Shown: positions 1 through 27,758 of the stretch, one piece after another | How the letters are laid out: every line of letters begins with the position of its first letter | Numbering within the stretch: position 1 is the stretch's first letter | Assembly: GCA_963707855.1 (NCBI GenBank) | Contig: CAVPRQ010000017.1 | Span: forward strand, 33,040-97,039 | Direction: 5' to 3' | Origin: an uncultured Thermoleophilia bacterium | GTDB taxonomy: Bacteria > Actinomycetota > Thermoleophilia > UBA2241 | DNA: 64,000 bases | Program-made: the position numbers and the translations under genes | Notes under the pieces: model-generated | The model's database searches: none | Told to the model about the DNA's origin: nothing | What the model saw: the letters and a program-made list of their open reading frames with translations, nothing else

Positions 1-247
1 CGTCCGGCTCGTAGACCCGCGTCACCGCGGCCGCGCCGGCCCGCTCGACCAGCGCCCCGACCGTCGCCTCCCTGCCCGCAGCGGGCAGCTCGAGCTCGTG
101 CCTCAGGACGAGGACACCGCTGTCCGAGACGCAGAGCGTGACCTCGCAGCCGTTGTCGGCCAGTGTCGCCAGCAGGCGCAGCGCGTAGACGGCGCCGCTG
201 GCGCCGGTGACGCCGAGGAAGACACGTTGTGGTGTCGCTGAAGACAT
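1..247 (-). CDS. ubiX: UbiX-family flavin prenyltransferase, N-terminal 82 codons (gene continues beyond window start)
   Basis: Open at the window edge, so absent from the ORF track. Manual translation from ATG (complement of 245-247) gives MSSATPQRVFLGVTGASGAVYALRLLATLADNGCEVTLCVSDSGVLVLRHELELP... This is the GxTGASG start typical of UbiX/Pad1. Confidence 0.75.
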   Translation of the reverse strand, partial: MSSATPQRVFLGVTGASGAVYALRLLATLADNGCEVTLCVSDSGVLVLRHELELPAAGREATVGALVERAGAAAVTRVYEPD

Positions 248-292
248 GGGTCGATTCTGCCCCGCAAGGGGCTGGTCGTCACAGACGGGGCT

Positions 293-1606
293 TCAGTCGC
301 CGATCGATCCGCTGTGGCAGTCGCCGCCGTAGCAGCCGCCGGGGCCGGCGCCGGCGTTGCCGTGGCACTTGACGCAGACGCCGCCGTTGGAGAACACCGC
401 GTCGGAGTGGTTCGCCTTGAAGGCGCCGCTGTGCGGGAGGCTGACGCCGTGGCAGTTCGAGCAGAAGGATGCGCTGTGGCACTTCGAGCAGACGCCGGGC
501 GAGGCGTAGTACGCCGAGGGGTGCGTCTGCTGGAAGCCGGCCGGGTGCGGCATGGTCAGGCCGTGGCACTTGGTGCAGCTGTTCTTGCCGTGGCACTTGA
601 CGCAGACCTGCTGGTCCTTGGCCGCTACGTTGTCGTGCCGCGCCTCCCAATCCGACGGGTGCGGCATCGCGACGCCGTGGCAGTCGATGCAGAACCTCGG
701 GTCGTCCTTGAGGTGACACGAGACGCAGATCGACTGGCCGCGGTCGAGCACGGTCCTGCCGTGGCGCCTGCTCCCAGCCCTTCGGGTGCGGCATCTGCAG
801 ACCCTGGTGGCAGTCGCTGCAGAACGCCTTGCCGCCGTGACAGCCGGCACACTGCTGCGGCGTCACCTGGACCGTCATCGGCGACCTTCTCGTACCCCGA
901 CGGGAGACCGCCGACGTGGCAGGTGTCGCAGTCGTCCGGGAGCTGCTCGCCGTCGTGGCACCGCGCGCACACCGACATGATCGTGTCCTGGGGCATGCGC
1001 GCCACCTCGAGCTGCGTGCCCGGATGCGAGATGTTCGCGTGACAGGTCAGGCACTGGTAGCCCTCTTCGCGCAGGCCGGTGTGGTTGACGCGGATGTTGC
1101 CGACGACGATGTCGCGCTCGATCTCCTCCTTGGGGTGGCACTGGATGCAGTTGTTGGCGCCCACGTACGTCGTGATGGGCTTCTGGTAGGTGTCCGAGAT
1201 GTAGTTGACGAGGTGCGTCACGCCCTGCAGGTTGCGCACGAAGTAGTTGAAGACGCCCGGCTTGGTGTGGCAGTCCTGGCACACCACGCCGGCGTCGTAG
1301 TGCGCCGTCTGCTTGTACGTGACGACCTCGTCCTTGATGACGTGGCACTGCGCGCACGTGTCCATGCGGTTGAGGGCCGCGAAGGCGACGACGGCGACCA
1401 CGAAGAGCAGGACAAGTGCGACGGTGACGCCGATGAGCCAGCGCCTTGGGGACCGTGACCTCGAGCAGGACGCGGCTGCGGGGTCGGCGACGGCGTGAGC
1501 CGTCGGTCGCGATGGCAGTCTCCTCGCCGCGACCCGCGCTCGCGCTCTCGTCCGCGACCGGCGGCGGCGCGTCCTGCGGGATGCTGGTGTTCGTCTCGTC
1601 GTCCAT
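293..1606 (-). CDS. Membrane-anchored NapC/NirT-type multihaem cytochrome c with C-terminal di-haem repeat extension (15 CxxCH + 1 CX4CH); frame broken about 3 times as assembled
   Basis: Frames 875..1606, 625..2160, 279..878 and 293..850 join into one protein. It runs MDDETNTS..., then TM helix LIGVTVALVLLFVVAVVAFAAL, then the NapC/NirT module TCAQCHVIKDEVVTYKQTAHYDAGVVCQDCHTKPG with CIQCH and CLTCH. These are followed by CARCH, CDTCH, CAGCH, CSDCH, CVSCH, CIDCH, CVKCH, CTKCH, CSKCH, CSNCH, CVKCH and CYGGDCH. Frame breaks lie near 1450-1500, 880 and 775. Confidence 0.8.
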
Positions 1607-1609
1607 GGC

Positions 1610-2160
1610 CTAGAGGCTCGTCTCGGGCGTCGGGCTCGGCGCCGGCGTGTACTCCTGCTCCTCGAACAGGTCGTGGGCGCGCGGGTCGCCCGACGCGTGG
1701 GCGTCGTGGCAGGCCTGGCAGTTGGCGACCTCATGGCAGTTGAAGCACGTCTGCCCGGCGCGTTCGCGCGGCGGCGGGATGCTTGACTACGAAGTTGCCC
1801 GGGTGCGGCATCTTCACCTGATGGCAGGTGTCGCAGTAGGTCTTCGTGTCGTGGCACTGGTCGCACGCCTTCTCGCCGACCTTTCGGTGCGGGGCGCCGT
1901 GCCGCGACAGCCAGTCCTCGGGATGCGGCATCTGCAGCCCGTTGTGACACGAGCTGCAGCTGTCCGGCTCGGTGTGGCAGGCGCTGCAGGTCGAGAGGAT
2001 GCCGACCGAGCCGTGCTCGTCGATCCCACGTCTCCTCGGTGTGCGACACCGGGGCGTCGTCGTAGTCCTTCTCGGCGTGGCAGAGGTCGCAGTCGGCGAC
2101 CGCGACCTTGCCGCCGGCCGTTTCGTAGTGGTTGTTGTGACACAGCAGACACTGGTCCAT
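1610..2160 (-). CDS. Octahaem cytochrome c domain protein (8 CxxCH), no signal peptide of its own; 2 frame breaks
   Basis: Manually joined from three pieces. MDQCLLCHNNHYETAGGKVAVADCDLCHAEKDYDDAPVSHTEETW / IDEHGSVGILSTCSACHTEPDSCSSCHNGLQMPHPEDWLSRHGAPHRKVGEKACDQCHDTKTYCDTCHQVKMPHPGNFVVKHPAAA / RERAGQTCFNCHEVANCQACHDAHASGDPRAHDLFEEQEYTPAPSPTPETSL. Stop TAG at 1610-1612. Breaks near 2020 and 1760. Its ATG is in frame with the upstream ORF across a single TAA. Confidence 0.7.
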
Positions 2161-2166
2161 CGACGG

Positions 2167-2634
2167 TTAGGTGCGCGAGCCCACCGGCACCGCCTCCGGG
2201 TGCCCGACCGTCGAGTGGCAGCGGATGCACAGGAAGCCCGCTTCGATGAGGTGCCGGTGCTCGACCCGGATGCCGTCGACGGTGATCACTCCGAAGAGGT
2301 CGTCGTTGACGTGGCACTGCCGGCACGACTGGTTGAGCACCGAGGCGAGGATGGGCTCCTCGTAGTCGCCGGTGATCTGGGCGATCGGCTGCTGCAGGGC
2401 CTCCATCTTGGCGGTGAGGAAGAAGAAGGGGCCCGGTTTCGAGTGACAGAGCTCGCAGTTGACGTCGCTGTGCCGAGCCGTGCGGTACGAGGCGACGATG
2501 GGCTCGTGGCTCTTGCACAGGCCGCAGAACGTCGGCGTCGAGGTGGCCGTCAGCGTCACCCCGACCACGACGACGGTGATCGTCAGGACGATGACCGCGA
2601 TGGTCAGCCCGCGCTGGGTGAGCCGGAACTTCAC
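2167..2634 (-). CDS. Membrane-anchored NapC/NirT/NrfH-like cytochrome c (3 CxxCH + 1 CxxCK)
   Basis: ORF 2167..2634. N-terminal TM helix LTIAVIVLTITVVVVGVTL, then FCGLCKSHEPIVASYRTARHSDVNCELCHSKPG, CRQCH and CIRCH. The layout matches the N-termini of the 293..1606 and 5662..6672 proteins. Confidence 0.8.
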   Translation of the reverse strand: MKFRLTQRGLTIAVIVLTITVVVVGVTLTATSTPTFCGLCKSHEPIVASYRTARHSDVNCELCHSKPGPFFFLTAKMEALQQPIAQITGDYEEPILASVLNQSCRQCHVNDDLFGVITVDGIRVEHRHLIEAGFLCIRCHSTVGHPEAVPVGSRT

Positions 2635-2710
2635 GCGCTCATGCCCTCGAGACCAGAGGCACGGTCATGGCCGGGAGTCGCCCGCATGGCGCCTGCGTGC
2701 CAAGTCCGCA

Positions 2711-3892
2711 TCACGGCGTCGGGTCGTGGACGACCGACTTGTGGCAGTGCACGCAGGGATACCCACCCGCGTGCGACCTCGCCGACGAGTGGCACCTCGT
2801 GCACGCCGAGCTGGCGACGGCGGCCTGTCCGGCATGGTACTTGCTCTTGTGGCACGACCGGCACGTGGTCGACGCTCCCCTGGACTTGGCGTGGAGCTTC
2901 TTGCTGTGGCAGCCACTGCAGACGAACTTCTTCGTCACTGTCGAGGAATGCTGCGCGCGCGGTTTGGCCGGCGGGGCGCTGCCCTTGTGGCAATCGGCGC
3001 AGCGCGAGCCGGACACCCTCGCGCCGGCGTGCTTCATGGCGTGACAGCTGCGGCAGCTCTTGACCGCCGGCGCAGCCGTCGCGTGGTGGAAGGCGGGCGC
3101 GTTCGTGTGACACTTGGTGCAGGACACGCCGCCGGCGTGCTTCTGGTAACCCTCGTCGTGGCACGACGTGCAGGCGCCGACGTCCGGCGCCGTGTTGTGG
3201 ATCTGGCCGGCGTGGCAGCTGCGGCAGTCGGCGGTGCCGAAGGTCGACGCGGCGTGACATGTCGTGCACGTCGCGGGGACGGCCGGCAGGTCCATGCCGT
3301 CGTGACAGTCCTCACACCCCGTCCCGTCGTGACTCACCTGGGCGGAGGCGTAGGTGCCGTCGTGACAGGCGGTGCAAGATGGCGGCGGTGAGGCGATGCC
3401 GTCGTGGTGCGGGCTGGCGCCTGGATCGGCGTACCCGAGGCTCGTCGAATGGCAATCGAGGCAGACGCCGTACGGCGGCTCGGCCCCGAGATGCGGCTCG
3501 GAGCCGTGACTGAAGGGGACCGAGTACGCGTTGGAGAAGGCGTTGTACAGATGGCAGTCCTGGCTGCAGTCCGCGCTCGTCGAGGAGAACTTGCCCGTGT
3601 CCTCGCCCGGCGCATGACACGACCAGCACGTCTGTGCGAAGCGGCCGTCGACGGTCGCGCCGGGCGTCACCTTGAAGCCGCGATGGCAGAGGCCCGTGCA
3701 TGAGGTGTCCGAGATGCCGTTGGCGTGACACAGGTCGCAGTTCTGCATGGCGGGTCCCGGAGGGATGCCGTCGTGGGCCCAGTTCGAGTACGCGGCGGCC
3801 GGCGCGGCGCACAGCGCCAGCAGGAGCGCCGCGCCGGCCGCCACGACGAGCGATTGGCGGACGATCCGCTTCAGTCCGGCTGCGGTCCCCAT
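2711..3892 (-). CDS. Secreted multihaem cytochrome c (15 CxxCH + 2 CX3CH)
   Basis: ORF 2711..3994. I moved the start to ATG 3892, which has the purine-rich GAGGGGAGGGG just upstream and a signal-like MGTAAGLKRIVRQSLVVAAGAALLLALCAAPAAAYS. Motifs: CDLCH, CWSCH, CLDCH, CTACH, CEDCH, CTTCH, CRSCH x3, CTSCH, CTKCH, CADCH, CSGCH, CTRCH, CVHCH, plus CTGLCH and CSQDCH. Confidence 0.85.
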   Translation of the reverse strand: MGTAAGLKRIVRQSLVVAAGAALLLALCAAPAAAYSNWAHDGIPPGPAMQNCDLCHANGISDTSCTGLCHRGFKVTPGATVDGRFAQTCWSCHAPGEDTGKFSSTSADCSQDCHLYNAFSNAYSVPFSHGSEPHLGAEPPYGVCLDCHSTSLGYADPGASPHHDGIASPPPSCTACHDGTYASAQVSHDGTGCEDCHDGMDLPAVPATCTTCHAASTFGTADCRSCHAGQIHNTAPDVGACTSCHDEGYQKHAGGVSCTKCHTNAPAFHHATAAPAVKSCRSCHAMKHAGARVSGSRCADCHKGSAPPAKPRAQHSSTVTKKFVCSGCHSKKLHAKSRGASTTCRSCHKSKYHAGQAAVASSACTRCHSSARSHAGGYPCVHCHKSVVHDPTP

Positions 3893-3918
3893 GGCCCCTC
3901 CCCTCGCGACGATGGTCC

Positions 3919-4792
3919 TCAATCGAACACCGTCCAGATGATGAACGCCGCCATCAGCACGGCCGCAAGACCGGCGACCGCGGTGAACGACCACCAGATC
4001 ACGTCACCCGCGTACGTGCGCCACGTGATGCGGCGCTCCACGAGGACCTCGTCGAGCGTCCCCTCACGCACGCGGCGAGCATACTCCAAGGGGCGCTCGG
4101 CCTTGTAGTGCTCGACCGGCAAGCGAGCCCGTGAAGATGACCTTGTCGAGCGGGAACGACTCGGGCCTGAGGTGGGCGCTGAAGAGGTGCACGAAGATGA
4201 AGATGACGCCCATCGCGAGGAGCGCCTCGTTGGAGTGGATGACGAGGGCGATATTGAGCACGATCCCCGGCGCGTACCTGGTGGTCTCGATGGGGAACCA
4301 CATCATGAAGCCGGTGAGTCCGATGATCACCGTGCCCACGACCAGCGAGGCGAAGTCGAACTTCTCCCAGTACGTGTAGCGGTCGAACTGCGGCTTGCCG
4401 CCCATACCGAGGAACCAGCGGAACATGCCGACGATGTCACGCAGGTCCTTGCCGCTGAACATCATAGAGCCAGGACCGAGGACTCCGCGGCCGCGGCGGC
4501 GCGCGATCACGACGATCATGTAGATGACCTCGGCCGTCCAGTAGATGACCGTGATGATCGCCGCGATGCGGTGGTAGACGCCGGCGGCGGTCACCCCGCC
4601 CGTCGCGTCCATGAACCACTGGGCCCACTCGGAGTCCTTGTACTTGAGCGGCATGCCCGTGAACACCAGCACGGTGAAGCTCACGAACACGAGGAAGTGC
4701 ATCCAGCGATGGAAGACGTTGAAGCGCAGGTACTCGACCCGCGTCCGGGGCTTGGGGCTTCGCTCAGTGGTGCTTGCGACCGTAGAGGCCAT
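3919..4792 (-). CDS. b-type cytochrome membrane subunit (HydC/FdnI, Ni/Fe-hydrogenase cytochrome b-like), 5 TM; 1 frame break
   Basis: ORF 4064..4975 read from ATG 4792 (MASTVASTTERSPKPRTRVEYLRFNVFHRWMHFLVFVSFTVLVFTGMPLKY...). Conserved His residues sit in TM helices (FHRWMHF, YHRI, VIHSNE, FVHLF). After LRPESFPLDKVIFTGS the protein continues in ORF 3919..4122 (PVEHYKAERPLEY...VIWWSFTAVAGLAAVLMAAFIIW). Break near 4120. Confidence 0.75.
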
Positions 4793-5660
4793 CCTTGATC
4801 CCCCGGTAGATGTACAGGGCGGTGTGGACCCCGCCGAACGTGAAGACGACGGCGATGAGCAGCACGTAGGCGAGCCAGAACAGGAAGACGGTGAAGGAGT
4901 CCGTCGGGTCCTTCGGGTCGATGTGGACCAGGAACCCGGCGAAGTTCTCGTTGGCGCCCGGGTGGCAGCCCGCACAGGTGGCGACCCGGTTCTCGTCCGA
5001 GATCGTGCTCTCGGGGTCTGACGCGGGCAGGATCCTGTGGCCGCCGTGGCAGTCGGGGCAGGTCGCGGCGTCGTCCTTGCCGAGCAGGAACGCCTTGCCG
5101 TGGTAGCTGTCGAGGTAGGTCTCGCTCTTCCCGCCGTGGCACTCCGAGCAGAGGTCGAGGGTGCTGCGCCGGAACTCGAGGCTCTGCGGCGCGACGATGT
5201 TGTGGGGCGTGTGGCAGTCGGCGCAGACGGGCGCGTCCGTGGACTGTTCGTCGAACACCAGGTCGCCGTGGAACGAGTCCTCGTACATGGCGAACTGGTC
5301 GGCGTGGCAGTTGCGGCACGACTTCAGCTTGGCGGTCTGGAGCCACCCCTCGGTCTGCTCCGCCGAGTGCGGGCCCTTCTCGAAGCCGATGTGGCAGCCG
5401 GTGCAGTCGAGCTGGCCGTGCAGCGACGCCTCATAGGCGTCCAGGTCGACGGCCAGCGGCTTGGCCACGCCGTCAACGGTGACCGTGCCCGGGTTATCAG
5501 CGTTGTGGCACTCTCCACACTCCCTGGCGCCGTCCGACAGCGCCGCGGCCCGCGGAGCGTGCGCCGCGGCGCCGACGACGAGAGCCACGGCGAGGAGCAG
5601 GACCAGCCCGAGCAGCCGGGCTGCGCCGCGTCGCGGTGCGACATCGCGACGGGGCGTCAT
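4764..5660 (-). CDS. Heptahaem cytochrome c with signal peptide and C-terminal TM helix (paired-CxxCH type)
   Basis: ORF 4764..5678. Start is likely ATG 5660, with AGGAAGG 7 nt upstream. Motifs CGECH, CTGCH, CRNCH, CADCH, CSECH, CPDCH, CAGCH with recurring S-x-HG (SLHG, SFHG, SYHG). C-terminal helix FTVFLFWLAYVLLIAVVFTFGGV. Confidence 0.85.
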   Translation of the reverse strand: MTPRRDVAPRRGAARLLGLVLLLAVALVVGAAAHAPRAAALSDGARECGECHNADNPGTVTVDGVAKPLAVDLDAYEASLHGQLDCTGCHIGFEKGPHSAEQTEGWLQTAKLKSCRNCHADQFAMYEDSFHGDLVFDEQSTDAPVCADCHTPHNIVAPQSLEFRRSTLDLCSECHGGKSETYLDSYHGKAFLLGKDDAATCPDCHGGHRILPASDPESTISDENRVATCAGCHPGANENFAGFLVHIDPKDPTDSFTVFLFWLAYVLLIAVVFTFGGVHTALYIYRGIKDGLYGRKHH

Positions 5661-5661
5661 C

Positions 5662-6672
5662 TCAGAGCCTTCCTGCATGACAGGCGTCGCACATCGACTG
5701 TGGGTGACAGGTCAGGCACGAGCCCCCGCCGTCCGCCACCGCGCGGTGGGACTGCAGCCAGTCCTCGGGGTGGCTCACGCGGTGGCACTGTTCGCAGAAG
5801 GTGTCTTCGTCATGACATCCCAGGCAGCCGTTGCGGTCCTGCTCGGCGACCGTCTTGTGAGTGTATCGCCAGGTTCCGGAGAAGTGGTCGGCGGTGGGTC
5901 GCGCGTGGCACTCGTCGCAAAAAGCCTCGGGGTTGTGATGACAGCGCAGGCAGGCGCTGTCGTCGGTGAGCGCCTCTTCGCCGTGCGTCTCGATGTAGTC
6001 GGCGGGGTGCGGGTCGGCGGGCGTCTGCGGCGTCAGGTGGCAGAAGTCGCACTGGTTGGCCGCCGTCTCCTGCTCGTGGCACATGCCGCAGACGCTCATC
6101 GAGACCTTGCCGGCCTCGGCGCGCTCGCCGTGCGAGACCTTGTCGTGGCAGTCGGCGCAGACGAGCCCGCTGATCCCCACGTGACGCTCGTGCGGCAGGC
6201 GGACCGTGTCGTGCTCGTCGCCGATCGCGCTCACGTCGTGGCACGGGGTGCAGTTCTCGTCGCCGGGGCGCTCGCCGGGTTGATCCGTCTGTGGCACGTT
6301 GAGGTAGTCGGCCCAGATGTTGAGCCACTCCTGCGTTCGCCACTTGATCTGGTTCCAGGCGCCGGGAGCGATGTGGCAGTCGACGCATTCGACGTCGGAA
6401 TGGACGGAGCCGGCCCAAGCTTCGGCGGCCGGCTCGGTCGCCTTGCAGGAGCCGCAGTAGGACGAGGACGAGGTGGCCGCCACGGGGACCCAGACGAGGA
6501 CGCCGACGATGATGATGATGACAATGACGACGAGGGTCGCGACCCACGGGGAGCGTCTCCGGCGCGGAGGAGGCCGATGCGGATGCTCGCTGCTGCCCTC
6601 GACGCTCACGTCGTCGGTCTTCCCCTCGGCTCCTGGTGGCGATGTCGTCGGCGGCAAGCCTACGGTCCCCAC
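5662..6672 (-). CDS. Membrane-anchored NapC/NirT-type multihaem cytochrome c with C-terminal extension (11 CxxCH + 1 CxxCK)
   Basis: ORF 5662..6672, GTG start. TM helix WVATLVVIVIIIIVGVLVWVPV, then YCGSCKATEPAAEAWAGSVHSDVECVDCHIAPG. Further motifs: CTPCH, CADCH, CGMCH, CDFCH, CLRCH, CDECH, CLGCH, CEQCH, CLTCH, CDACH. Confidence 0.85.
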   Translation of the reverse strand: MGTVGLPPTTSPPGAEGKTDDVSVEGSSEHPHRPPPRRRRSPWVATLVVIVIIIIVGVLVWVPVAATSSSSYCGSCKATEPAAEAWAGSVHSDVECVDCHIAPGAWNQIKWRTQEWLNIWADYLNVPQTDQPGERPGDENCTPCHDVSAIGDEHDTVRLPHERHVGISGLVCADCHDKVSHGERAEAGKVSMSVCGMCHEQETAANQCDFCHLTPQTPADPHPADYIETHGEEALTDDSACLRCHHNPEAFCDECHARPTADHFSGTWRYTHKTVAEQDRNGCLGCHDEDTFCEQCHRVSHPEDWLQSHRAVADGGGSCLTCHPQSMCDACHAGRL

Positions 6673-6759
6673 ACGGTGCCGCCGAACGCGGCGATTGTAC
6701 CATCCCGGGTATCGAGCGGCGAGCGCGACAAAACGCGGCGCCGGCGCCTGCCGCCGTGC

Positions 6760-7622
6760 CTAGAGCAGGAGCACGGCGACGATGACGACGGCGCCGTACA
6801 GCAGGCCCACGGCGCCGTTGAGGCTCATGAAGCCCATGCCGACCTCGTCAAGCCCGCGGCGAGCGATGTCGACATGCGACCACCCGAGCAGCGCGGCGAC
6901 GGCGAGGAGGCCGATCCAGTAGACCAGCCCGAGACCGAGGAGAGCCCCGACCGCGGCAAGCAGCGCGATCGCGGCGACGTGCGAGAGCAGGGCGACGAGC
7001 AGGGCCCGGCGCCAGCCGAGCGCCACGGCCACCGAGTGCAGGCCCTCGCGCCGGTCGAAGTCGAGGTCGAAGATGCCGTAGATGACGTCGAAGCCTCCGA
7101 CCCACAGGCAGACGGCGAGGAACAGCAGCACCGTCTCGAGCGCCACGCTGCCGGTCACGGCGACCCAGGCGGCGGCCGGGGCGAGCCCGAGCGTCAGGCC
7201 CAGGGCGTAGTGGCAGAGGGCCGTCACCCGCTTCGAGTAGGGGTACGCGACGAACGCCGCGAGAGGGATCGGCCAGAGATAGCGGCACGGCGGCGAGAGC
7301 TGGAACGCCGCGATCACCAGCAGGGCGACCGAGACGGTCGTGAAGAACCAGACGTCCTTGCGGCGCAGCTTGCCGGCTGGCAGCTCGCGCGCCGCCGTGC
7401 GCGGGTTGCGTGCGTCGATCCCGGCGTCGATGAGGCGGTTGAGCGCCATGGCGGAGCTGCGCGCGCCGACCATGGCGACGGTGATCCACAGAAGGTCCCA
7501 CCAGCCGGGGAAGCGCAGCTCCGCGAGAAACGCCCCCGCGAAGGCGAACGGCAGCGCGTAGACGCTGTGCTCGATCTTGATGAGGCGCGCGAAGAGCAGA
7601 GGACGCTCAGAAGGGGCGTCAC
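6760..7622 (-). CDS. UbiA-family aromatic polyprenyltransferase (menaquinone-type)
   Basis: ORF 6760..7473 plus manual upstream extension in the same frame: ERPLLFARLIKIEHSVYALPFAFAGAFLAELRFPGWWDLLWITVAMVGARSSAMALNRLIDAGIDARNPRT... Multi-TM. There is no in-frame ATG/GTG upstream of LIKIEHSV. The GTG at 7622 is one frame off, so the start is uncertain (1-nt indel or an unusual start). Confidence 0.8.
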
Positions 7623-7632
7623 CCGGTCGTGC

Positions 7633-7929
7633 TCACGGAACGGCGGCGGGCGTCAGACGTCGGCGGACGCGGATCGACGGGCCCGCAGGTGGCGCTGCCC
7701 GCGACTCGACGGAAGCAGTCTCCGGCTCGGTGCCGAAGTCGGCGAGGACGAAGGAAGTGATGGCGACGACGGCGGCGAAGAGCCCGATGACGAAGAGGAT
7801 CGCGTACACGAAGATGCTGGTCGGTACGGCGATCCCGAGGTAGGAGCTCAGGGTCCAGCAGGCGATGGCGATCGCCCAGTTGGCGATCGAGAGGATCAAC
7901 AAGTGACGATGGATGTTGCCGTGCAGCAC
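7633..7929 (-). CDS. Small two-TM membrane protein, unknown function
   Basis: C-terminal part of ORF 7633..8208. GTG at 7929 is preceded by GAGGAGG at 5-nt spacing. Sequence VLHGNIHRHLLILSIANWAIAIACWTLSSYLGIAVPTSIFVYAILFVIGLFAAVVAITSFVLADFG... G/C-rich third positions. Confidence 0.5.
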   Translation of the reverse strand: MLHGNIHRHLLILSIANWAIAIACWTLSSYLGIAVPTSIFVYAILFVIGLFAAVVAITSFVLADFGTEPETASVESRAAPPAGPSIRVRRRLTPAAVP

Positions 7930-8017
7930 CGCCGCCTCCTCACGTGTCGTCGCGCGGCCGCCTCGCGGCCCAGTGTAGGTCCCGTCCGTCCCGGCGTAAA
8001 GCGTCGTCGGGCGGCGC

Positions 8018-9466
8018 TCAGGCGAACGGCAGGCCGAACTCGGCCCACCGTTCGCTGACGCGCCGCACGACGTCCGGGTCCTGGGCGAGCTCGTCCGGCC
8101 ACTCGCGGCCGTGGCCCTCCTCGGGCCAGGTCTTCGTCGCGTCGATGCCCATCTTGGCCCCGTAGCGCGCGAACGGGCTCGAGTGGTCGAGCACGTCGAG
8201 GGGACCATCGACGATGAGGCAGTCGCGGCGCGGGTCGACGTTGTTGAACACGCGCCACGTCACCTCGCTGTAGTCGTGCACGTCGACGTGCTCGTCGACG
8301 ACGACGACGAACTTGGTGAACATCATCTGCCCCATCCCCCACACGGCGCTCATGATCTTGCGCGCCTGCCCGGGGTAGGTCTTGCGGATGGCGATGATGG
8401 CGCAATCGTGGAAGACGCCCTCGATCGGCAGGTCCATGTCGACGATCTCGGGCTGCACCAGTCTGAGCAGGGGCAGGAAGAGCCGTTCGGTCGCCTTGCC
8501 GAGGTAGGCGTCCTCCATCGGCGGACGGCCGACGATGGTCGCCGGGTAGATGGGGTCGCGCCGGTGCGACATCGCCGTCAGGTGGAAGACCGGGTACTGG
8601 TCGGCGAGCGAGTAGTACCCGGTATGGTCGCCGAAGGGTCCCTCGAGCCGCGTCTCGTCCTTCTCGACGTAGCCCTCGAGGACGATCTCGGCGTCGGCCG
8701 GCACCTCGAGATCGACCGTACTGCACGGGGCGAGCTCGACCGGCTCGCCGCGCAGGAACCCGGCGAACATGAACTCGCTGATGCCGGGCGGCAGCGGCGC
8801 CGTCGCGGCGTAGGTGATCGCCGGGTCCGTCCCCAGGGCGACGGCGACTTCGAGCCGGCCGTCGGCCTCGCGGAAGTTGGCGGCGCCGTCGTGATGGATG
8901 TGCCAGTGCATGCCGGTGGTCTGGCCGTCGTAGACCTGCAGCCGGTACATGCCGGCGTTGCGCCGCCCCTCGCGGTCCTTGGTGACCACGACGGGCAGCG
9001 TGATGAACGGGCCGCCGTCGCCCGGCCAGGTCGTCAAGACGGGCAGACGGGAGAGGTCGGGAGGTTCGACGACGACCTCGCGGAAGGCAGCCTTCTTCGC
9101 CATGCGCGGCCCGTAGGAGGCGAGCTCCTTGAGCTGGCCGAGCGCCTTGACCTTGCCGACGAGGCCGCTCGGCACCTGCAGCTCGAGCAGGCCGGCGATG
9201 CGCTGGGCGAGCTCGTCGAGCGGCGCGCCCAGCGCGAGCTCCAGCCGGCGGAGCGAGCCCAGCTGGTTCATGAGCACGGGGACGGCCGGCGCCCCGGGGC
9301 CGGCCTTGACCTTCGGCCGCTCGAAGAGCAGCGCCGGCCCGTGCGCCTTGCTCGTCCGGTCGGCGATCTCGGCCATCTCGAGGTAGGGGTCGACCTCGAC
9401 ACGCACCCGCGTCAGCTCGCCCTCGCGTTCGAGCAGCTCGATGAAACGACGCAGGTCCATGGTCAC
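8018..9466 (-). CDS. UbiD-family (prenylated-FMN dependent) decarboxylase, menaquinone biosynthesis type
   Basis: Uninterrupted 482-aa ORF. DLRRFIELLEREGELTRV..., GMYRLQVYDGQTTGMHWHIHHDG, GPFGDHTGYYS and IVGRPPMEDAYLGKATERLFLP are all typical of UbiD. GTG start overlaps the upstream stop (GTGA). Confidence 0.88.
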   Translation of the reverse strand: MTMDLRRFIELLEREGELTRVRVEVDPYLEMAEIADRTSKAHGPALLFERPKVKAGPGAPAVPVLMNQLGSLRRLELALGAPLDELAQRIAGLLELQVPSGLVGKVKALGQLKELASYGPRMAKKAAFREVVVEPPDLSRLPVLTTWPGDGGPFITLPVVVTKDREGRRNAGMYRLQVYDGQTTGMHWHIHHDGAANFREADGRLEVAVALGTDPAITYAATAPLPPGISEFMFAGFLRGEPVELAPCSTVDLEVPADAEIVLEGYVEKDETRLEGPFGDHTGYYSLADQYPVFHLTAMSHRRDPIYPATIVGRPPMEDAYLGKATERLFLPLLRLVQPEIVDMDLPIEGVFHDCAIIAIRKTYPGQARKIMSAVWGMGQMMFTKFVVVVDEHVDVHDYSEVTWRVFNNVDPRRDCLIVDGPLDVLDHSSPFARYGAKMGIDATKTWPEEGHGREWPDELAQDPDVVRRVSERWAEFGLPFA

Positions 9467-10083
9467 CTCACTGGGCCAGAGGGCGGTCGGGATCGCCGGC
9501 CGACGGCCGGTGTGGGAGGAAGGCAGCCGCGAGGGGCGCCGGGTCGGACAGGTGCAGGGCGGCCGCAGCCGCGGCCGCCCGCGCCGGTGCCGTCCGCCGG
9601 CGCCCCCTTGCCAAGCTCAGCGTCGATCTCGTCGAAGAACGCGCCGGCCTCAGCCGGCGGCACGCCGGCGCGCACGGCGGCCAGAGCCGCCATCGTGTAC
9701 GCCCAGAGGGCGTCGTCGACGGCGAAGGGCGCCGCCAGACTGCGCAGGCACGAGCACGCCGACATGAGGCGGGTGAGCAGGGCCACCGAGTGCACGTCAC
9801 CCCGGTTCGCGATCGTGCGCAGGCCGTGGGCGTAGAAGACGTCGCCGGCCAGCAGCGCCGTCTGCCTGTCGTCGGCGGCGATCATCGCGAGGCGGCCGGT
9901 CCGGTAGTGGACGAGATACCCCTCGTGGATCAGCTCGATCGCCTCGAGGAAGGCTTCGTCGTCCCGCTTGTCGAGCGCGGCGAAGAGCGGCCCCCAGCGA
10001 AGGTCGACCGGCGCGGCCGTCTCGACAAGAGCGAGGGGCGCCGCGACGGCGCGCAGGGCCGCCTCGACGGGGGTCGCGGTCAC
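9463..10083 (-). CDS. Hypothetical protein translationally coupled between rex and ubiD
   Basis: In-frame part of ORF 9463..10482, starting at GTG 10083, which overlaps the rex stop (GTGA). Sequence [25 protein letters not shown]...FLEAIELIHEGYLVHYRTGRL...DVFYAHGLRTIA. I recognise no family. The Gly/Arg/Pro-rich tail may reflect a frame error. Confidence 0.45.
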   Translation of the reverse strand: MTATPVEAALRAVAAPLALVETAAPVDLRWGPLFAALDKRDDEAFLEAIELIHEGYLVHYRTGRLAMIAADDRQTALLAGDVFYAHGLRTIANRGDVHSVALLTRLMSACSCLRSLAAPFAVDDALWAYTMAALAAVRAGVPPAEAGAFFDEIDAELGKGAPADGTGAGGRGCGRPAPVRPGAPRGCLPPTPAVGRRSRPPSGPVR

Positions 10084-10757
10084 GAGACCGGATCGCCCTC
10101 GTCGGTCGACCCGGCCAGGCAGAACGAGAGGAACATCAGCTCGCTCGAGAGGTCGACCGGCCGGACCGTGACGTGCGGCGGGGTCGTGACCTTGACCGGG
10201 GCGAAGTTGAGGATCGCCCGCACGCCCGCGGCCGCGAGACGGTCGACCGTCGCCTGGGCCTCGGCAGCAGGAACGGTGACGAGAGCGATGTCGACCGGGG
10301 TCTCGGCGCAGAAGCCCTCGAGCCCGTCGATCGAGCTCACGCGCCCGCTGCCGAAGCTCGCCCCGATCACGGTGGGCGAGCTGTCGAACATGCCGACGAG
10401 CTCGAAGCCTTGTTCGGCGAACCCCCGGTAGCGAGCCAGAGCCGTACCCAGCAAGCCGGCCCCGACGATGATCACGTTCCACGGGTGCTCAAGGCCGAGA
10501 GAGCGCGTGATCTCGGTGATCAGGCGCGACACCTCGTAGCCGACGCCGCGGGTGCCGAACTCGCCGAAGTACGAGAAGTCCTTGCGGATCTGCGCGGCGT
10601 TGAGACCGACCATCGCGGCGAGCTCCTTCGACGAGACGCGCTCGACGCCGCGTCCGCGCAGCTCACGCAGCTTGCGCAAGTACAGGGCGAGACGCGGGAC
10701 CGTGACCTCGGGGACGTGCCGCTTGCCGCCGTCGCGCATGGTCCCTCCTCGGGTCAT
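10080..10757 (-). CDS. rex: Redox-sensing transcriptional repressor Rex
   Basis: 225-aa ORF. wHTH region [55 protein letters not shown] followed by the Rossmann motif [18 protein letters not shown] overlaps the hemL stop (ATGA). Confidence 0.92.
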
Positions 10758-12037
10758 CCGGCGAAGAACGCCCGGGCGGCGGCCTCGGCGGTCGCCAGGT
10801 CGTCGTCGGTCAGCGCGAGCGAGACCATGGTGGCCTCGAACTGCGACGGGGCGAGGTAGATGCCGCGATCGAGCATGTGCCGGTGGTAGGCGGCGAACGC
10901 CTGCGTGTCGGCGCGCTTCGCGTCGGCGAAGCGGGCGACCGGGCCGTCGCAGAAGAACATCGTCATCATGGCTCCGACCTGGTTGAGCGTGACGGGGCGC
11001 TCGCCCTGGGCCGCCGCGGCGCGCAGCGCCGCGGCGAGCCGGTCGGCGAGCGCCTCCAGGCGTTCGTAGGTCCCGGGCTCGCTCAGCACGCTCAAGGTCG
11101 CCGCTCCGGCGGCCATCGCCAGCGGATTACCGGACAGGGTGCCGGCCTGGTACGTCGACCCCAGCGGCGCCACCGTCTCCATGAGCTCGCGGCGGCCGCC
11201 GAAGGCGCCGACCGGCAGGCCACCACCGATGATCTTGCCGAGCGTCGTCATGTCGGGGACGACGCCGAAGCGCTCCTGGGCGCCGCCCCAGGCGACGCGG
11301 AACCCGGTGATGACCTCGTCGAAGATGAGGACGGCCCCGTACTGGGTGCAGAGCTCGCGGGCGCGCTCGAGAAAGCCGGGCCCGGGCGGTACGACGCCCA
11401 TGTTGCCGGCGACGGGCTCGACGATGAGGGTGGCGATCTCCTCACCGCGCTTCTCGAACAGCGCCTCCATGGCCTCGATATCGTTGTACTCGAGCAGCAG
11501 GGTGTCGGCCGTGGTGGCCTTCGTGACCCCTGGGCTATCCGGCAGCGAGAGCGTGAGCACGCCGCTGCCGGCGGCGGCGAGGAAGGCGTCGGAGTGGCCG
11601 TGGTAGCAGCCGATGAACTTGACGATCTTGTCGCGCCCGGTGAAGCCGCGGGCGACCCTCACGGCGCTCATCGTCGCCTCTGTCCCCGAGTTGACCATGC
11701 GCACGAGCTCGATCGAGGGGACGGCGCCGCAGATGAGGCGCGCCAGCTCGACCTCGAGTGCCGTCGGCGCGCCGAAGCTCGTGCCCTCCTCGAGCACCTG
11801 ATGCAGGCGATCCAGGACCTGAGGATGTCCCCAGCCGAGGATCATCGGTCCCCACGACGAGACGAAGTCGACGAACTCGTTGCCGTCGGCGTCCCACACG
11901 TGGGCGCCGCGGGCGCGGGCGATGAACAGGGGGTGCGGCATGCCCACGCCCTTCATCGCCCGGACCGGCGAGTTGACGCCGCCGGGGATGTACTTGAGCG
12001 CCTCTTCGAACAGACGCTTGGACGTGCTGGTGTTCAC
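10754..12037 (-). CDS. hemL: Glutamate-1-semialdehyde 2,1-aminomutase
   Basis: Uninterrupted 427-aa [25 protein letters not shown]..., [32 protein letters not shown] and [17 protein letters not shown] (PLP lysine region). Confidence 0.93.
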
Positions 12038-12144
12038 GCTCTCCTCCGGACCGGTCGTGCGACGTGAGGTGGCGAATATACTACGCCCTCGCAGGGCAAA
12101 GCCCCCGATGCAGCAACGACCTCGGCTCGATGAAGGGGTGCGAG

Positions 12145-12603
12145 ATGGCCGAACCCAAAGGCGGCGATGTCGTGATCAGGGCGGCGACCGCGGCCGACGC
12201 GGCCGCGGTCGCCGCCCTGATCCGCCTGATGGCCGAGCAGTACGACGAGCACTCGCCGGTGACCACCGAGTGGGTCGCCGAGTGCCTCGGCGACGACAGC
12301 TTCTTCGCCGTCGTCGCCGACCTCGACGGCGACGTCGTCGGCGTCGTCACCTTCGTCCTCGTCCGCGGCCTGTTCCACGCGAAGCAGTCGGCCGTCATCC
12401 AGGAGGCCTCCGTCGCGCCCGCCCATCAGAACGAGGGCATCGGGCGGGCGCTGCTTGAAGAAGCCGTCGCCCGGATCAAGCAGCTCGACGTGGCCGAGAT
12501 CAGCATCTCGACCGGCTTCGAGAACGAGCGCGCCAAGTACCTCTACCGCTCGCTCGGGTTCGTCGAGGAGACGCTGATGCTCGAACAGCATCTGGGCGCC
12601 TGA
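12145..12603 (+). CDS. GNAT family N-acetyltransferase
   Basis: ORF 12064..12603, with the likely start at ATG 12145 (or 12130). [16 protein letters not shown]..., acetyl-CoA loop [15 protein letters not shown]-terminal YRSLGF. Confidence 0.8.
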
Positions 12604-12605
12604 GG

Positions 12606-13052
12606 ATGAGCGTGGAGATCCGCGACGCGACGCCCCTCGACGCCAGCGCCCTGCTCCCGCTCATCGTCGAGATGGGGGTCGGCTTCCACCGGCCCTCCGG
12701 AGCCGACGCGGCCTTCGTCGCGCGGTATCTCGAGCAGCCCGGCCAGGGCATCCTGCTCGCGCTCGTCGACGGGGCGCCCGTGGGCTTCCTCGCCCACGCG
12801 ACCACGCTCGACCTCTATCTGGGCGGACCGACCGGGGAGATCGTCGACCTGCTGGTGACCGAACGGGCGCGCGGCAGGGGCGTCGGCACGGCGCTCGTCG
12901 CCGAGGCGGTGCGGCGCTTCGACGAGGCCGGCTGCGGCGAGGTTCGGGTCGTCACCGACGCCGACAACCTCGCCGCCATACGGGCCTACGCGAAGGCGGG
13001 CATCGGCGGCGACCTCATCTGCCTTCACCGGCACTTCGGCGGCGAGGAGTGA
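12606..13052 (+). CDS. GNAT family N-acetyltransferase (second, tandem)
   Basis: 148-aa ORF. IRDATPLDASALLPLI..., RGRGVGTALVAEAVRRFDEAG, AIRAYAKAGI. Confidence 0.8.
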   Translation: MSVEIRDATPLDASALLPLIVEMGVGFHRPSGADAAFVARYLEQPGQGILLALVDGAPVGFLAHATTLDLYLGGPTGEIVDLLVTERARGRGVGTALVAEAVRRFDEAGCGEVRVVTDADNLAAIRAYAKAGIGGDLICLHRHFGGEE

Positions 13053-13067
13053 GATGTCTGACCGGCC

Positions 13068-14232
13068 TCAGGCCGGCGCGCACCAGCCCTTCGGCACGTA
13101 GGCGCAGTAGGGCTCCTCGGCCATGTAGTCGCCGGTCGCCTCGTAGGCGCGCGCCCGGCAGCCGCCGCAGACCCTCTTGAACTCGCAGGCGCCGCACTTG
13201 CCCTTGAGCCCGTCGAAGTCGCGCAGCTCGTTGAAGAGCGGCGAGTCGTTCCACACCTCGGGGAAGGGCTGCTCGCGGACGTTGCCGGCGATCTTGTCGA
13301 AGTAGCCGCAGCCCTGCACGTCCCCGCGGTGGCTGATGAAGCAGAAGCCTATGCCGGCGAGGCAGCCACGGCTGAGCGTGTTCATGCCGCCGTGGCTGTG
13401 CGGGTGCACCTCGAGCTTGCGCCCCTGCGCCTTGGCGCGCTGGCGCATGACGCGCCAGTAGTGCGGCACGTCGGTGGGCTTCATGAAGAGGTCGCTCTGC
13501 TGCTGCGCGTCGTACATCCACTCCAGGGCGCGCTCGTACTCCTCCGGCGGCAGCTCCTGCTCCTCGAGCTCCTTGCCGCGGCCGGTGGGAACGAGCATGA
13601 ACGGGTGGAACGAGACGGCGCCGAGGTCCTCGGAGAGCTTGAGCAGCGCCGGCAGGTGGTGCACGTTCAGCTTGGTGATCGTGCTGTTGATCTGCACCTC
13701 GACGCCGGCGTCGAGGCAGTTGCGCACGCCGCGCACGGCGCCGTCGAAGGCGCCGGGGACGCCGCGGAACTCGTCGTGCTCGGCGGCGCTCGGGAAGTCG
13801 ATGGAGATGCTGACGCGAGCGATGCCGACGTCGTGCATGCGACGCGCGACCTCCGGCGTGACCAGCGTGCCGTTCGGCGACATCACCGTGCGCAGCCCCT
13901 TGCCGATGGCGTACTCCGCGATGTCGAAGATGTCGGCGCGCATCAGCGGATCGCCGCCGGTGAGGATGAGGATGGGGTTCGCGAACGAGGCGATCTGGTC
14001 GACGAGGGTGAAGGCCTCGGCGGTGCTGAGCTCGCCCTCGTAGGGGCCGTGCACCGCCGAGGCGCGGCAGTGCACGCAGGCGAGGTTGCAGCTGCGCGTG
14101 ACCTCCCAGGCGATGACGCGCGGCGGCGCGACGCCGGCGGCGTCGCCGGGCCGCGCGCCGGTCCTGCGGAGTTTTCAGCGTGCGGATGGTGCAAACCGAC
14201 CTCAGTGTGCCAGACGGAGGGGGGCGCCGCAA
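13068..14232 (-). CDS. Radical SAM/SPASM protein of the AhbC/AhbD/NirJ (haem-modifying) type; 1 frame break near the 5' end
   Basis: ORF 13068..14075 extends upstream in frame to ...VIAWEVTRSCNLACVHCRAS (CxxxCxxC), then TGGDPLMRADI, with a C-terminal Cys-rich SPASM region GCLAGIGFCFISHRGDVQGCGY...GKCGACEFKRVCGGCRARA. No in-frame start follows the upstream stop. The likely start is 14232 in the frame of ORF 13015..14232, with an indel near 14160. Confidence 0.7.
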
Positions 14233-14284
14233 CGTCGCCTGCCCGTCGCGACAGGGACTGGCTTCGTCGCCCGGCCGCCGCCGC

Positions 14285-15051
14285 TCACACGTCCTTGCGC
14301 GCCTTCCAGATCTCCTCGCACGGCCAGCGCCGCGCCCATTCGAGCTCCACGATGCCCTCGAAGGTGGTGGTCGCGTCCGGCCCCGGCCGCACCTCGATCA
14401 GGTCCTCGACCTGGAACCCGTTGGCGCGCAGGAGCCTGACCCAGTCGCCGTAGCCGAGGTGGAACTCGATGGTGTCATCGTCAGGCCATTCGAAGCGGTG
14501 CATGCCGAAGTAGTCGCGCGCGAGCCGCTCACCCGCCGACGCGTCGGCGTCGTCCGACGTGCAGAGCATCATGAGCGTGCTGTTGGTGAGGAAGATGAGG
14601 CGGCCGCCGGGGCGAAGCAGGCGGGCCGCCTCCGGCACCCAGACGGTACGGGTCGGCCCAGAGGCACGCCCCGTACTCGCTGATCGCGAGGTCGAAGCTC
14701 GCGTCGGGTAGCGGCACGTGCTCGGCGTTGCCCTCGATGAGCGGGAACTCGAGACCGTGCTCGGCCTGGAGCCGGCGCGCCGTGGCGAGCTGGGCGCTCG
14801 AGAGGTCGATGCCCACCGGGCGTGCGCCGCGGCGCGCGAGCCAGGCCGAGACGTAGGCCGGTGCCACAGCCGAGCTCGATCGCGTCCAGCCCGTCGAGGT
14901 CGTCGGGCAGGACGTGAAGCTCGGCCTCGGGCACGCTCCAGATGCCCCAGCTCGGCTCGTCGTCCGCCCAGGCGCGCTCGCCAAAGGCGACGAAGTCCTT
15001 GGCGAGCTCGTTCCAGGCGGCGCGGTTGCGCTCGACGTGGTCGCCGGTCAT
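14285..15051 (-). CDS. Class I SAM-dependent methyltransferase; 2 frame breaks
   Basis: Join of ORFs 14569..15051 ([20 protein letters not shown]...[10 protein letters not shown]), 14529..14984 ([30 protein letters not shown]...[10 protein letters not shown]) and 14285..14638 ([18 protein letters not shown]...). ATG overlaps the hemB stop (ATGA). Confidence 0.75.
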
Positions 15052-16019
15052 CCCAGCCAGCGAACGACGTCCTTGGCGTGGTACGTGATGATCAGGTCGG
15101 CGCCGGCGCGCTTGATGCCGGTCATCGCCTCCATCACGGCACGCTCCTCATCGAGCCAGCCCTTCTCGGCCGCCGCCTTGAGCATCGCGTACTCGCCGCT
15201 CACGTTGTAGGCGGCGAGCGGGAACTTGGTCTCCTGCTTGATGGCGCGGATCACGTCGAGGTACGGCAGCGCCGGCTTCACCATGACGATGTCGGCGCCC
15301 TCCTCGATGTCGAGCAGGGCCTCGCGCACCGCTTCCTCCCCGTTCGGCGGGTCCATCTGGTAGGACTTGCGGTCGCCGAACGCCGGCGCCGACTCGGCCG
15401 CCTCGCGGAACGGCCCGTAGAAGGCCGAGGCGAACTTGGCCGAGTAGGCCATGATCGCGGTGTCGGTGAGGCCCTCGTCGTCGAGCGCGTTGCGGATCGC
15501 CGCCACGCGCCCGTCCATCATGTCGGACGGGGCGACGAAGTCGGCCCCCGCCTCGGCGTGGGTGACGGCCATCTTGGAGAGCAGTTCCAGCGTGACGTCG
15601 TTGAGCACCTCGCCGTCCTGCACGACCCCGCAGTGGCCGTGGTCCATGTACTCGCAGAGGCAGACGTCGGTGATCACGAGCAGCTCGGGGAACTCGTCCT
15701 TGATGGCGCGTACGGCGAGCTGGACCACGCCCTCGGAGTCGTAGGCCGTCGTCGCCGCCGAGTCCTTGTGGGCGGGGATGCCGAAGAGCAGGACGGCCGG
15801 GATGCCGAGGCCCGCCACCTCGCGGATCTCAGGCAGCAGGTTGCCGATCGAGAGCTGGAAGCACCCGGGCATCGAGCCGATGGGGTTCTTCACGTTCTCG
15901 CCGGCGATGACGAAGAGCGGGTAGATGAGGTCGTCGACGCTGAGCGTCGTCTCGCGCAGCATGCGGCGGATGGTGGGGGTGCGCCGCAGGCGCCTCATGC
16001 GGTAGCTCGGGTAGTACAT
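15048..16019 (-). CDS. hemB: Porphobilinogen synthase (delta-aminolevulinate dehydratase), Zn-type
   Basis: C-terminal 323 codons of ORF 15048..16994, from ATG 16019. [21 protein letters not shown]..., Cys-rich Zn site [27 protein letters not shown] and [12 protein letters not shown]. Confidence 0.92.
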
Positions 16020-16191
16020 GCGATCGCTTCCTTTCGGCGAAGGCGGCCCCGGCGGGCCGTGCGGCGCCTGGGCTGGGCGGCGCGCCGTGCCATCTTCCAC
16101 CTGCAACGGTCGGATTGACAAGTCGCGCCGCCGACCGCCGCCGCGTCGAGGACTCAGGAGCGGGCGCCGGCGGTCGCCGGCGGGCGAAGCC

Positions 16192-27422: not shown

Positions 27423-27758
27423 TCAGTCAGTGCGGCACTGCATCTTCTCGCAGCGGTCGAGCACGAAGCGACGGTACTTCTCGAGGTCGCGCTCCAGCGT
27501 CGCCTGGGCGCGCGCGACCTCCTCGTCCGCCGTCTCCTTCGTCCGCGGCTGCGTAGTCGAGCTCCACGGCGACTCTCACCAGGCGGTCGCCCTCCGTCGT
27601 GAGGTCGACCTTGCCGGCCTCCATGTCGTCCTGGTCGATCAGCGGCTCCACGTCGGTCAGACCCCGCGTGTAACCACTCATCAGTGACTTCAGCATGAAC
27701 TCGCTCCACTCGAGATCGGCGAACTCGAGCGGGACGTCGACCGTGATAGACGTCTGGA
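27423..27758 (-). CDS. Small protein, possibly SRPBCC/cyclase-like; 1 frame break
   Basis: ATG 27758 is preceded by GGAGG. MAVIQTSITVDVPLEFADLEWSEFMLKSLMSGYTRGLTDVEPLIDQDDMEAGKVDLTTEGDRLVRVAVELDYAAA, then after a shift near 27545 KETADEEVARAQATLERDLEKYRRFVLDRCEKMQCRTD*. The family assignment is weak. Confidence 0.4.

Follow-up and report, generated by a model that had tools for sequence, protein, structure and literature searches.

In the window analysed here, a stretch of 64,000 nt from the uncultured Thermoleophilia bacterium assembly GCA_963707855.1 (contig CAVPRQ010000017.1, positions 33,040 to 97,039 of the forward strand), the minus strand carries a block of multihaem cytochrome genes between positions 293 and 6672. 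A preliminary description of this DNA had proposed that the block is an electron conduit for extracellular or insoluble acceptors in an actinobacterium-like genome, and the host is indeed a member of the class Thermoleophilia. We recounted the haem-binding motifs in a three-frame translation of the minus strand and obtained the totals given there: 59 CxxCH (24, 22 and 13 over the three frames), all between 376 and 6387, together with 2 CxxCK, 2 CX3CH and 1 CX4CH. The rest of the 64-kb window holds 4 CxxCH in total over all six frames, and a block of this length should, at the same background rate, contain about 0.2. The genes, in order of transcription, are the following (TM, transmembrane).

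5662..6672, minus strand: G1, 336 aa, with an N-terminal TM helix (residues 39-71), an NrfH/NapC-type module and a C-terminal multihaem extension; 11 CxxCH and 1 CxxCK (12 haem sites), the CxxCK at residue 73 being the first haem motif; intact in the window
4764..5678, minus strand: G2, with a signal peptide, a 7-haem periplasmic domain and a C-terminal TM helix (residues 259-290) bearing a conserved His
3919..4792, minus strand: G3, a 5-TM cytochrome b of family PF01292 (Ni_hydr_CYTB, HydC/FdnI type), free of haem c
2711..3892, minus strand: G4, 393 aa, with a signal peptide, 15 CxxCH and both CX3CH (17 haem sites), and no later TM anchor
1610..2634, minus strand: G5/6, about 340 aa, with a TM helix, an NrfH/NapC-type module and an extension; 11 CxxCH and 1 CxxCK, the CxxCK at residue 37 again being the first haem motif
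293..1606, minus strand: G7, with a cytoplasmic N-terminal tail, a TM helix and an NrfH-like module; 15 CxxCH and, at the C-terminus, 1 CX4CH (16 haem sites)

Comparison with related loci, all of which come from metagenomes or metagenome-assembled genomes (MAGs), with Danish soil, a boreal lake and tailings among the sources, indicates that the block is made up of six genes and that the seven open reading frames (ORFs) first counted are wrong. In L002, a JGI metagenome locus whose cytochrome b is 81% identical, six intact genes encode proteins of 328, 297, 290, 394, 344 and 455 aa, and the six-gene layout is found likewise in L084 and L087. In the window, the motifs below position 2160 switch between frames, and the tblastn matches of the relatives' proteins pass successively from frame -1 to -2 to -3 in both G5/6 and G7 and occupy two frames in the cytochrome b. 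The ORFs formerly listed with three haems (2167..2634) and eight haems share a frame and are separated by a TAA, and a signal peptide is missing from the second. In L002, L084 and L087 one uninterrupted ORF of 340-344 aa stands in their place; the two are one gene of about 340 aa, cut by the TAA. With G5/6 merged and six single-base insertions taken into account, the CxxCH counts per gene become 11, 7, 15, 11 and 15, plus the cytochrome b. The five c-type proteins, four of which are held by a TM helix, would carry about 64 haem c sites altogether, at about 20-36 residues per haem (20-25 except in G2), and their non-motif His residues are conserved. Pfam returned the families that had been named beforehand, with PF03264 in G1, G5/6 and G7, PF01292 in the cytochrome b, and PF09699 (Paired_CXXCH_1) among the matches of the 7-haem protein G2.

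The three PF03264 proteins resemble NrfH, CymA and NapC in having one N-terminal TM helix followed by a four-haem module, with scores of 40.8 bits (G1), 40.0 bits (G5/6) and 47.1 bits (G7) against a gathering cut-off of 24.1. Pfam and TM prediction thus bear out the three membrane-anchored NapC/NirT modules described earlier. G1, which has orthologues in all relatives, was the only one of the three modules modelled, and its AlphaFold2 (AF2) model (predicted local distance difference test score, pLDDT, 77.5) matched the NrfH chains 2vr0_F and 2j7a_C from Desulfovibrio over residues of about 40-180 with a probability of 1.0 and a target TM-score of 0.57-0.66. With 140-144 of about 145 residues aligned, the predicted fold spans nearly all of NrfH. 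No PDB fold match was found for the C-terminal half of the model, and a PDB sequence search with G7, G2 and the N-terminus of G1 returned no significant relatives. G7 scored 61.6 bits against TIGR03153 (NrfH), below the cut-off of 134.2, and the NrfH, NapC and TorC equivalog models all gave scores far below their cut-offs.

Unlike NrfH, CymA and NapC, the proteins of the block carry 8-12 further haems C-terminal to the NapC/NirT module, at about 22-25 residues per haem, and in the window and 11 relatives they have no adjacent NrfA, NapAB, TorA or NirS partner. In G7 four di-haem repeats of the form CxxCH-x5-9-CxxCH-G-x-x-[ML]-PH[PS] were recognized. The first haem motif reads CGSCKAT in G1, CGLCKSH in G5/6 and CAQCHVIK in G7, so that haem 1 of G1 and G5/6 departs from the canonical CxxCH/CxxCHxM form of NrfH-type proteins. 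This CxxCK is kept in orthologues, always as CxxCKSH in those of G5/6, while paralogues of the family in the relatives have either CxxCHxM, as in NrfH, or CxxCKxM. We take haem 1 of NrfH to be the quinol site, at which the motif His is not an axial ligand. More distant G1-like genes (2027 clusters at E up to 1e-3) bear generic names only and lack catalytic neighbours.

G2 and G3 together form a split CbcL-type bc cytochrome, as had been suspected from their architecture. G3 matches PF01292 with 35.9 bits (cut-off 30.1), and its homologues, 290 aa long, share invariant His at positions 28, 32, 74, 186, 202 and 207. In L005, L007, L010 and L084 the two genes are one ORF of 588-635 aa, while relatives with a single module (L002, L004, L006, L008 and L087, for example) share the split of the window; end-to-end alignment with the fused forms places the break between G2 and G3 in the cytoplasmic loop after TM1. 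Residues 53-302 of G2 align at E of about 1e-40 with the haem segment that precedes the b domain in 9-, 11-, 13- and 19-haem forms, and the 9-, 11- and 19-haem fusions of other phyla align with the pair from end to end. We surveyed the b domain with an alignment of the cytochrome b against one genome per GTDB species (>596 loci found, 80 kept). All 80 kept loci have a multihaem c domain fused to or directly upstream of the b domain, with 7 haems in Thermoleophilia, 9 in Nitrospirota and Desulfobacterota, and 11, 13 or 19 in Gammaproteobacteria, Bacteroidota, Calditrichota, Ignavibacteria and others. The survey also brought up a large family of about 930 aa with 19 haems c fused to this cytochrome b domain, apparently little studied, in L014 to L083 (e.g. 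L034, 8015..10813); its hosts are Bacteroidota, Calditrichota, Ignavibacteria, Latescibacterota, Acidobacteriota and others, and genes for 6-, 13- and 17-haem proteins are often adjacent.

In Geobacter sulfurreducens, CbcL (GSU0274) is an inner-membrane bc cytochrome that acts as menaquinol oxidase for low-potential extracellular acceptors. In the published protein, residues 30-279 form a periplasmic 9-haem domain at the N-terminus; there are six TM helices and two b haems, with His residues in TM1-3 and two more in TM5. G2 and G3 repeat this plan, a periplasmic multihaem c domain followed by six TM helices (one in G2, five in G3) and a PF01292 b domain, with candidate b-haem ligands in the His of the C-terminal helix of G2 and the invariant H32, H74, H186, H202 and H207 of G3. 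In a machine-read alignment from a published supplement, G. sulfurreducens CbcL reads ...FGPDSLMPNFRDIKDVAGMVRWFLFRGPKPTFERW(T)YWEKFDFAVFWG... opposite GPGSMMFSGKDLRDIVGMFRWFLGMGGKPQFDRYTYWEKFDFASLVVG in G3; about half of the roughly 47 aligned residues of this machine-read fragment are identical, YWEKFDF included, and the motifs GM-RWF and KP-F-R-(T)YWEKFDF are common to both. Fused 9-haem homologues in Desulfobacterota MAGs are 41-42% identical. The window version differs from CbcL in having seven haems rather than nine, in dividing c and b between two polypeptides, in travelling with an upstream gene for a 12-haem NrfH-type protein, in its actinobacterial host, and in that its function is a predicted one.

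Two other relationships were considered for this pair. CbcBA of Geobacter also combines a seven-haem c subunit, with a His-bearing C-terminal TM helix, and an adjoining separate b gene in the order c then b, while CbcB has four TM helices and was reported to be without sequence homology to CbcL. Candidate CbcA-like 7-haem ORFs, taken from Bacteroidota loci and not from Geobacter, match G2 at E of 1e-6 to 1e-8 compared with 1e-40 for CbcL-type c domains, and G3 groups with the CbcL-type family; on these comparisons, membership in the CbcBA group is not supported. With FdnI and HydC, G3 shares PF01292, and databases label its homologues 'cytochrome b subunit of formate dehydrogenase'. Nevertheless, it reaches 35.1 bits against TIGR01583 (cut-off 115.85), has an additional C-terminal TM helix and a multihaem cytochrome as its partner, and is without FdnGH or hydrogenase neighbours.

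G4 belongs to a small family of 149 matches, all unnamed, in MAGs of Actinomycetes and Thermoleophilia. Across 48 homologues neither its CX3CH sites nor 13 of its non-motif His vary.

The block lies among genes for the late steps of menaquinone synthesis, which are listed here with the regulator gene rex.

1..247, minus strand: UbiX-type flavin prenyltransferase, first 82 codons, cut by the window edge; directly downstream of the block
6760..7632, minus strand: UbiA-family prenyltransferase (MqnP type), best matches PF01040; directly upstream of the block and in the same position in relatives
7720..7929, minus strand: small membrane protein (about 91-108 aa) encoded between UbiD and UbiA; no Pfam match, in all relatives
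8018..9466, minus strand: UbiD-family decarboxylase (MqnL type), orthologues PF01977; 81-90% identity to relatives
10080..10757: Rex

The UbiX part in the window is 91% identical to a 205-aa PF02441 protein of L084, and the small membrane protein was located by tblastn with a 98-aa protein of L002 (86% identity). The gene order HemL, Rex, a 204-aa gene, UbiD, the small TM gene, UbiA, the block (G1, G2, G3, G4, G5/6, G7), UbiX, UbiE/MenG, polyprenyl synthase, MqnE, MqnA/D and MqnC recurs in 11 relatives (L002, L004-L010, L013, L084 and L087); in L087 the genes beyond UbiX are UbiE, polyprenyl synthase and an MqnE-like gene. Because this order recurs, the block sits inside a late-step futalosine/menaquinone operon across the lineage, and the position between ubiD-ubiA and ubiX pointed out in the preliminary description is a conserved one. 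At species level the nearest genomes are without exception MAGs, with 72-78% identity in the cytochrome b, and the top 120 UbiA matches, all at least 72% identical, included no outgroup without the block. No molybdopterin, Fe-S, copper or NrfA-like gene was found next to the block in the window or the 11 relatives, so that the absence of a catalytic subunit noted earlier holds for block and flanks, beyond the window edge included.

Within this frame the genes behave as modules. A second G1-G2-G3 set lies between UbiD and UbiA in five to six relatives, and since the three are duplicated together, they behave as a unit. Over window positions 1..10915, L084 shares 92% DNA identity in the Rex-UbiD flank and 65-83% in the block; its G4, the C-terminal half of its G7 and its UbiX are 88-91% identical at the protein level, while G1, G2 and G5/6 are 48-64% identical, and an additional module, G1' followed by a fused G2'G3', stands between its UbiD and UbiA. 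This mosaic of similarity, together with the extra module, suggests that modules may have been exchanged between lineages. In two other Actinomycetota MAGs (L011 and L012), bigger cytochrome islands occur outside a menaquinone-gene context, with two pairs of a 7-haem gene and a cytochrome b, two NapC-like genes and four to five cytochromes of 10-15 haems.

Further observations concern the surroundings. The gene of about 204 aa between Rex and UbiD (9463..10059) matches no Pfam family and is kept in every relative. Haem-synthesis genes lie upstream on the same strand, hemL at 10754..12037 and hemB/ALAD at 15048..about 16019, with a radical-SAM/SPASM gene at 13068..14075 that is possibly AhbD/NirJ-like, and the order of haem-synthesis genes and Rex is also found in L002 and L087. 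The Streptomyces-type Rex operator TTGTGAA-N4-TTCACAA (Streptomyces consensus, up to 3 mismatches) was not found in the window, nor were Rfam families, and a scan of 1..12500 gave no sigma-70 promoter or intrinsic terminator. The only two minus-strand CxxCH motifs outside the block, CEWCH and CGVCHSD at 54689 and 54866, are probably not haem sites, because the ORF around them reads like a zinc alcohol dehydrogenase. An 89-nt tRNA-Ala(ggc) called by ARAGORN at 58205..58293 on the minus strand lies inside apparent coding sequence and is probably false.

Our preferred reading, which we hold to be somewhat more likely than not, is that the six-gene block serves to oxidise menaquinol and export the electrons, with no catalytic subunit of its own. 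Module 1 (G1-G2-G3) combines a 12-haem NrfH-type cytochrome with the split CbcL-type bc cytochrome and its six TM helices and b-haem His, and module 2 (G4-G5/6-G7) a secreted 17-haem cytochrome with two NrfH-type cytochromes of one TM helix each and 12 and 16 haem sites. On the outer side of the membrane, menaquinol would be oxidised by the NrfH-like modules; the CbcL-like unit would use its b haems for this, giving up to four quinol-oxidising units, three NrfH-like and one CbcL-like. These may serve as parallel entry points that differ in energy yield, like ImcH, CbcL and CbcBA of Geobacter. Electrons would then run along dense, mostly bis-His haem chains tethered to the membrane and one secreted chain, and the long haem extensions together with G4 could bridge the zone of the wall and deliver them to acceptors that are insoluble or macromolecular, with Fe(III)/Mn(IV) oxides, humics and partner cells as candidates. 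Placement in the menaquinone operon would let the carrier and its oxidases be inherited and expressed jointly. We infer the endpoint outside the cell from the haem numbers, the missing catalytic partner and the role of CbcL in Geobacter.

Several points weigh against electron export. CymA/NapC-type proteins are general hubs, and with 64 kb of the genome seen, terminal reductases encoded elsewhere could be the true partners. The block contains no porin-like gene, and cytochrome c maturation genes, sought by the WWD motif of CcsA/CcmF, are absent from the window and from the flanks in the relatives. The AF2 model of G4 has a pLDDT of 59, too poor for a fold search or for haem-chain geometry, and the window copy carries a TAA and six frameshifts, put down here to probable assembly error. 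In Desulfovibrio ferrophilus, moreover, deletion of clusters of putative outer-surface multihaem cytochromes left Fe(III) oxide reduction unimpaired, so that gene content alone is no proof of electron export.

The alternative that survives best, which we consider possible but rather unlikely, is a general quinol-dehydrogenase hub from which nothing leaves the cell. Like CymA in Shewanella, such a hub would feed terminal reductases or oxidases, whether soluble or in the membrane, whose genes lie elsewhere, and pass electrons to nitrite, nitrous oxide, sulfur compounds or oxygen. Membership in the NapC/NirT family and the limited part of the genome in view are consistent with it, as is the occurrence of distant G1-like genes as singletons or small clusters in unrelated contexts. 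However, four haems suffice for a hub, whereas the NrfH-type proteins of the block carry 12-16 each and a secreted 17-haem protein is encoded with them; a reductase gene is adjacent in none of the 11 relatives; and in Geobacter, where alone the CbcL-type unit has been studied, it is linked with electron export.

Electrons might also flow inward and reach the menaquinone pool or periplasmic acceptors, their source being extracellular donors such as Fe(II), cathodes, reduced humics or partner cells. In principle a multihaem chain can run either way, and the anatomy of the block fits this direction as well as export. We regard it as improbable, since reduction of menaquinone from Fe(II) is energetically uphill, Cyc2, MtoA or another oxidative marker was not seen, and proteins of the NrfH, CymA and CbcL types are known as quinol oxidases.

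Highly improbable is the idea that a cytochrome of the block has catalytic activity itself, with the CxxCK haems, for instance, acting as in NrfA on nitrite, hydroxylamine or sulfite. The conservation of both CxxCK motifs in orthologues speaks for it, but in G1 and G5/6 the motif belongs to the first haem after the TM helix, which is the NrfH-type haem-1 (quinol-site) position and not an NrfA-like one; the NrfA-like reading of CxxCK is rejected on that ground. Signatures of NrfA, HAO, Otr and MccA were not found, and in G4 the conserved non-motif His are about equal in number to the haems.

The integrity of the genes, which the preliminary description had left open, was assessed against L087 (ENA ERZ25039503, contig_47610), which shares 93.2% DNA identity over window positions 1..17100 and is alike in gene order. 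The defects of the window copy are the following.

2167..2169, minus strand: in-frame TAA in G5/6; the codon is GAA (Glu) in L087, Glu in L002 and Tyr in L084
2024..2030 (about 2027), minus strand: single-base insertion in G5/6, GGG in the window against GG in L087, shifting the frame
near 1766, minus strand: second insertion in G5/6, an extra base relative to L087
near 4124, minus strand: insertion in the cytochrome b G3, shifting the frame of the last 55 residues; absent in L087
near 1451, 883 and 766, minus strand: insertions in G7, extra bases relative to L087

All six frameshifts consist of one extra base each. The same kind of error occurs throughout the window, which holds 31 frame junctions of the insertion type against 12 of the other type, most of them in the first 33 kb and few beyond, and outside the block the Pfam domains Peripla_BP_6, ABC_tran, SBP_bac_5, AMP-binding_C_2, DUF4388 and MFS are split over frames. 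Examples of split domains were seen at 14285..15051, 16192..17471, 20808..21837, 23058..24309, 26465..26804 and 27426..29448, in proteins that include a methyltransferase, a DUF4388 protein, an MFS protein, a LivK-like binding protein, an ABC ATPase, an AMP ligase and an SBP_bac_5 protein. L087 is free of the defect at all seven sites, with intact G3 (290 aa) and G5/6 (340 aa, 11 CxxCH and one CxxCK), while its own frameshifts fall at other places, in G1, G4, the N-terminus of G7 and ubiX; each block gene is intact in at least one of the two assemblies. The corrected C-terminus of the cytochrome b is identical to that of P0001, and when the window is compared with relatives, the ratio of nonsynonymous to synonymous substitution rates (dN/dS) comes to 0.19-0.37 in the cytochrome genes, with 0.11 in UbiD. 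Relative to L087 the window also lacks 26 nt where the radical-SAM gene ends (13081), and there is a 6-nt in-frame indel in UbiD (9313).

Because the same type of error occurs window-wide and L087 is intact at these sites while carrying other errors, the TAA and the six frameshifts are most probably assembly errors and not marks of pseudogenes. The notion that the downstream half (cytochrome b tail, G5/6 and G7) is decaying, which would account for six frameshifts and one in-frame stop within 293..4130, has hardly any probability left and is rejected in view of the like insertions that cut transporter, AMP ligase, MFS and DUF4388 domains elsewhere, the dN/dS values and the comparison with L087.

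Returning to electron export, we compared the block with conduits already described. For the Gram-positive Thermincola potens a chain of multihaem cytochromes of membrane, wall and surface, including OcwA (PDB 6I5B), has been proposed. The block shares with this model the concept of a porin-free route from a membrane quinol oxidase through the wall by cytochromes, while sequence relation is not significant (G2 against 6i5b, E=0.008) and the proteins, their numbers and their anchoring differ. It differs from MtrCAB porin-cytochrome conduits in that its six genes are all cytochrome genes flanked by menaquinone genes, with no gene for a beta-barrel porin, and the DmsE/MtrA model TIGR03508 gave a score far below its cut-off. 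In a FeGenie-based survey, 8 of 19 Thermoleophilia MAGs were mentioned in passing as encoding outer-surface multihaem cytochromes along with DFE_0448-like proteins and homologues of CbcL. We found no paper on the operon, on a split or fused 7-haem CbcL, on CxxCK NrfH fusions or on the position in the menaquinone operon. The kind of system, quinol-oxidising multihaem modules, is therefore known, and the present version is undescribed in the literature found. It is conceivable, though less likely than not, that the block represents an undescribed actinobacterial type of export. Membrane-tethered NrfH fusions, acting as 'wires' with 12-16 haems each, would take menaquinol electrons through the wall without a porin, together with the secreted 17-haem protein and a minimal split CbcL; the genes, set in the operon for menaquinone (and nearby haem) synthesis, would form one heritable respiratory island whose modules are shuffled between Thermoleophilia lineages.

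Thermoleophilia are abundant in soils and sediments. To our knowledge, nearly all that has been established on multihaem electron export comes from Proteobacteria, Desulfobacterota and one Firmicute; we know of no experimentally studied actinobacterial example. The minimal, naturally split 7-haem CbcL and the NrfH fusions with Lys at haem 1 would be useful for the study of mechanism, and the fixed position in the menaquinone operon is an unusual and directly testable tie between quinone synthesis and quinone oxidation. If electrons are indeed exported, Thermoleophilia would join the organisms that respire iron, manganese or humic substances.

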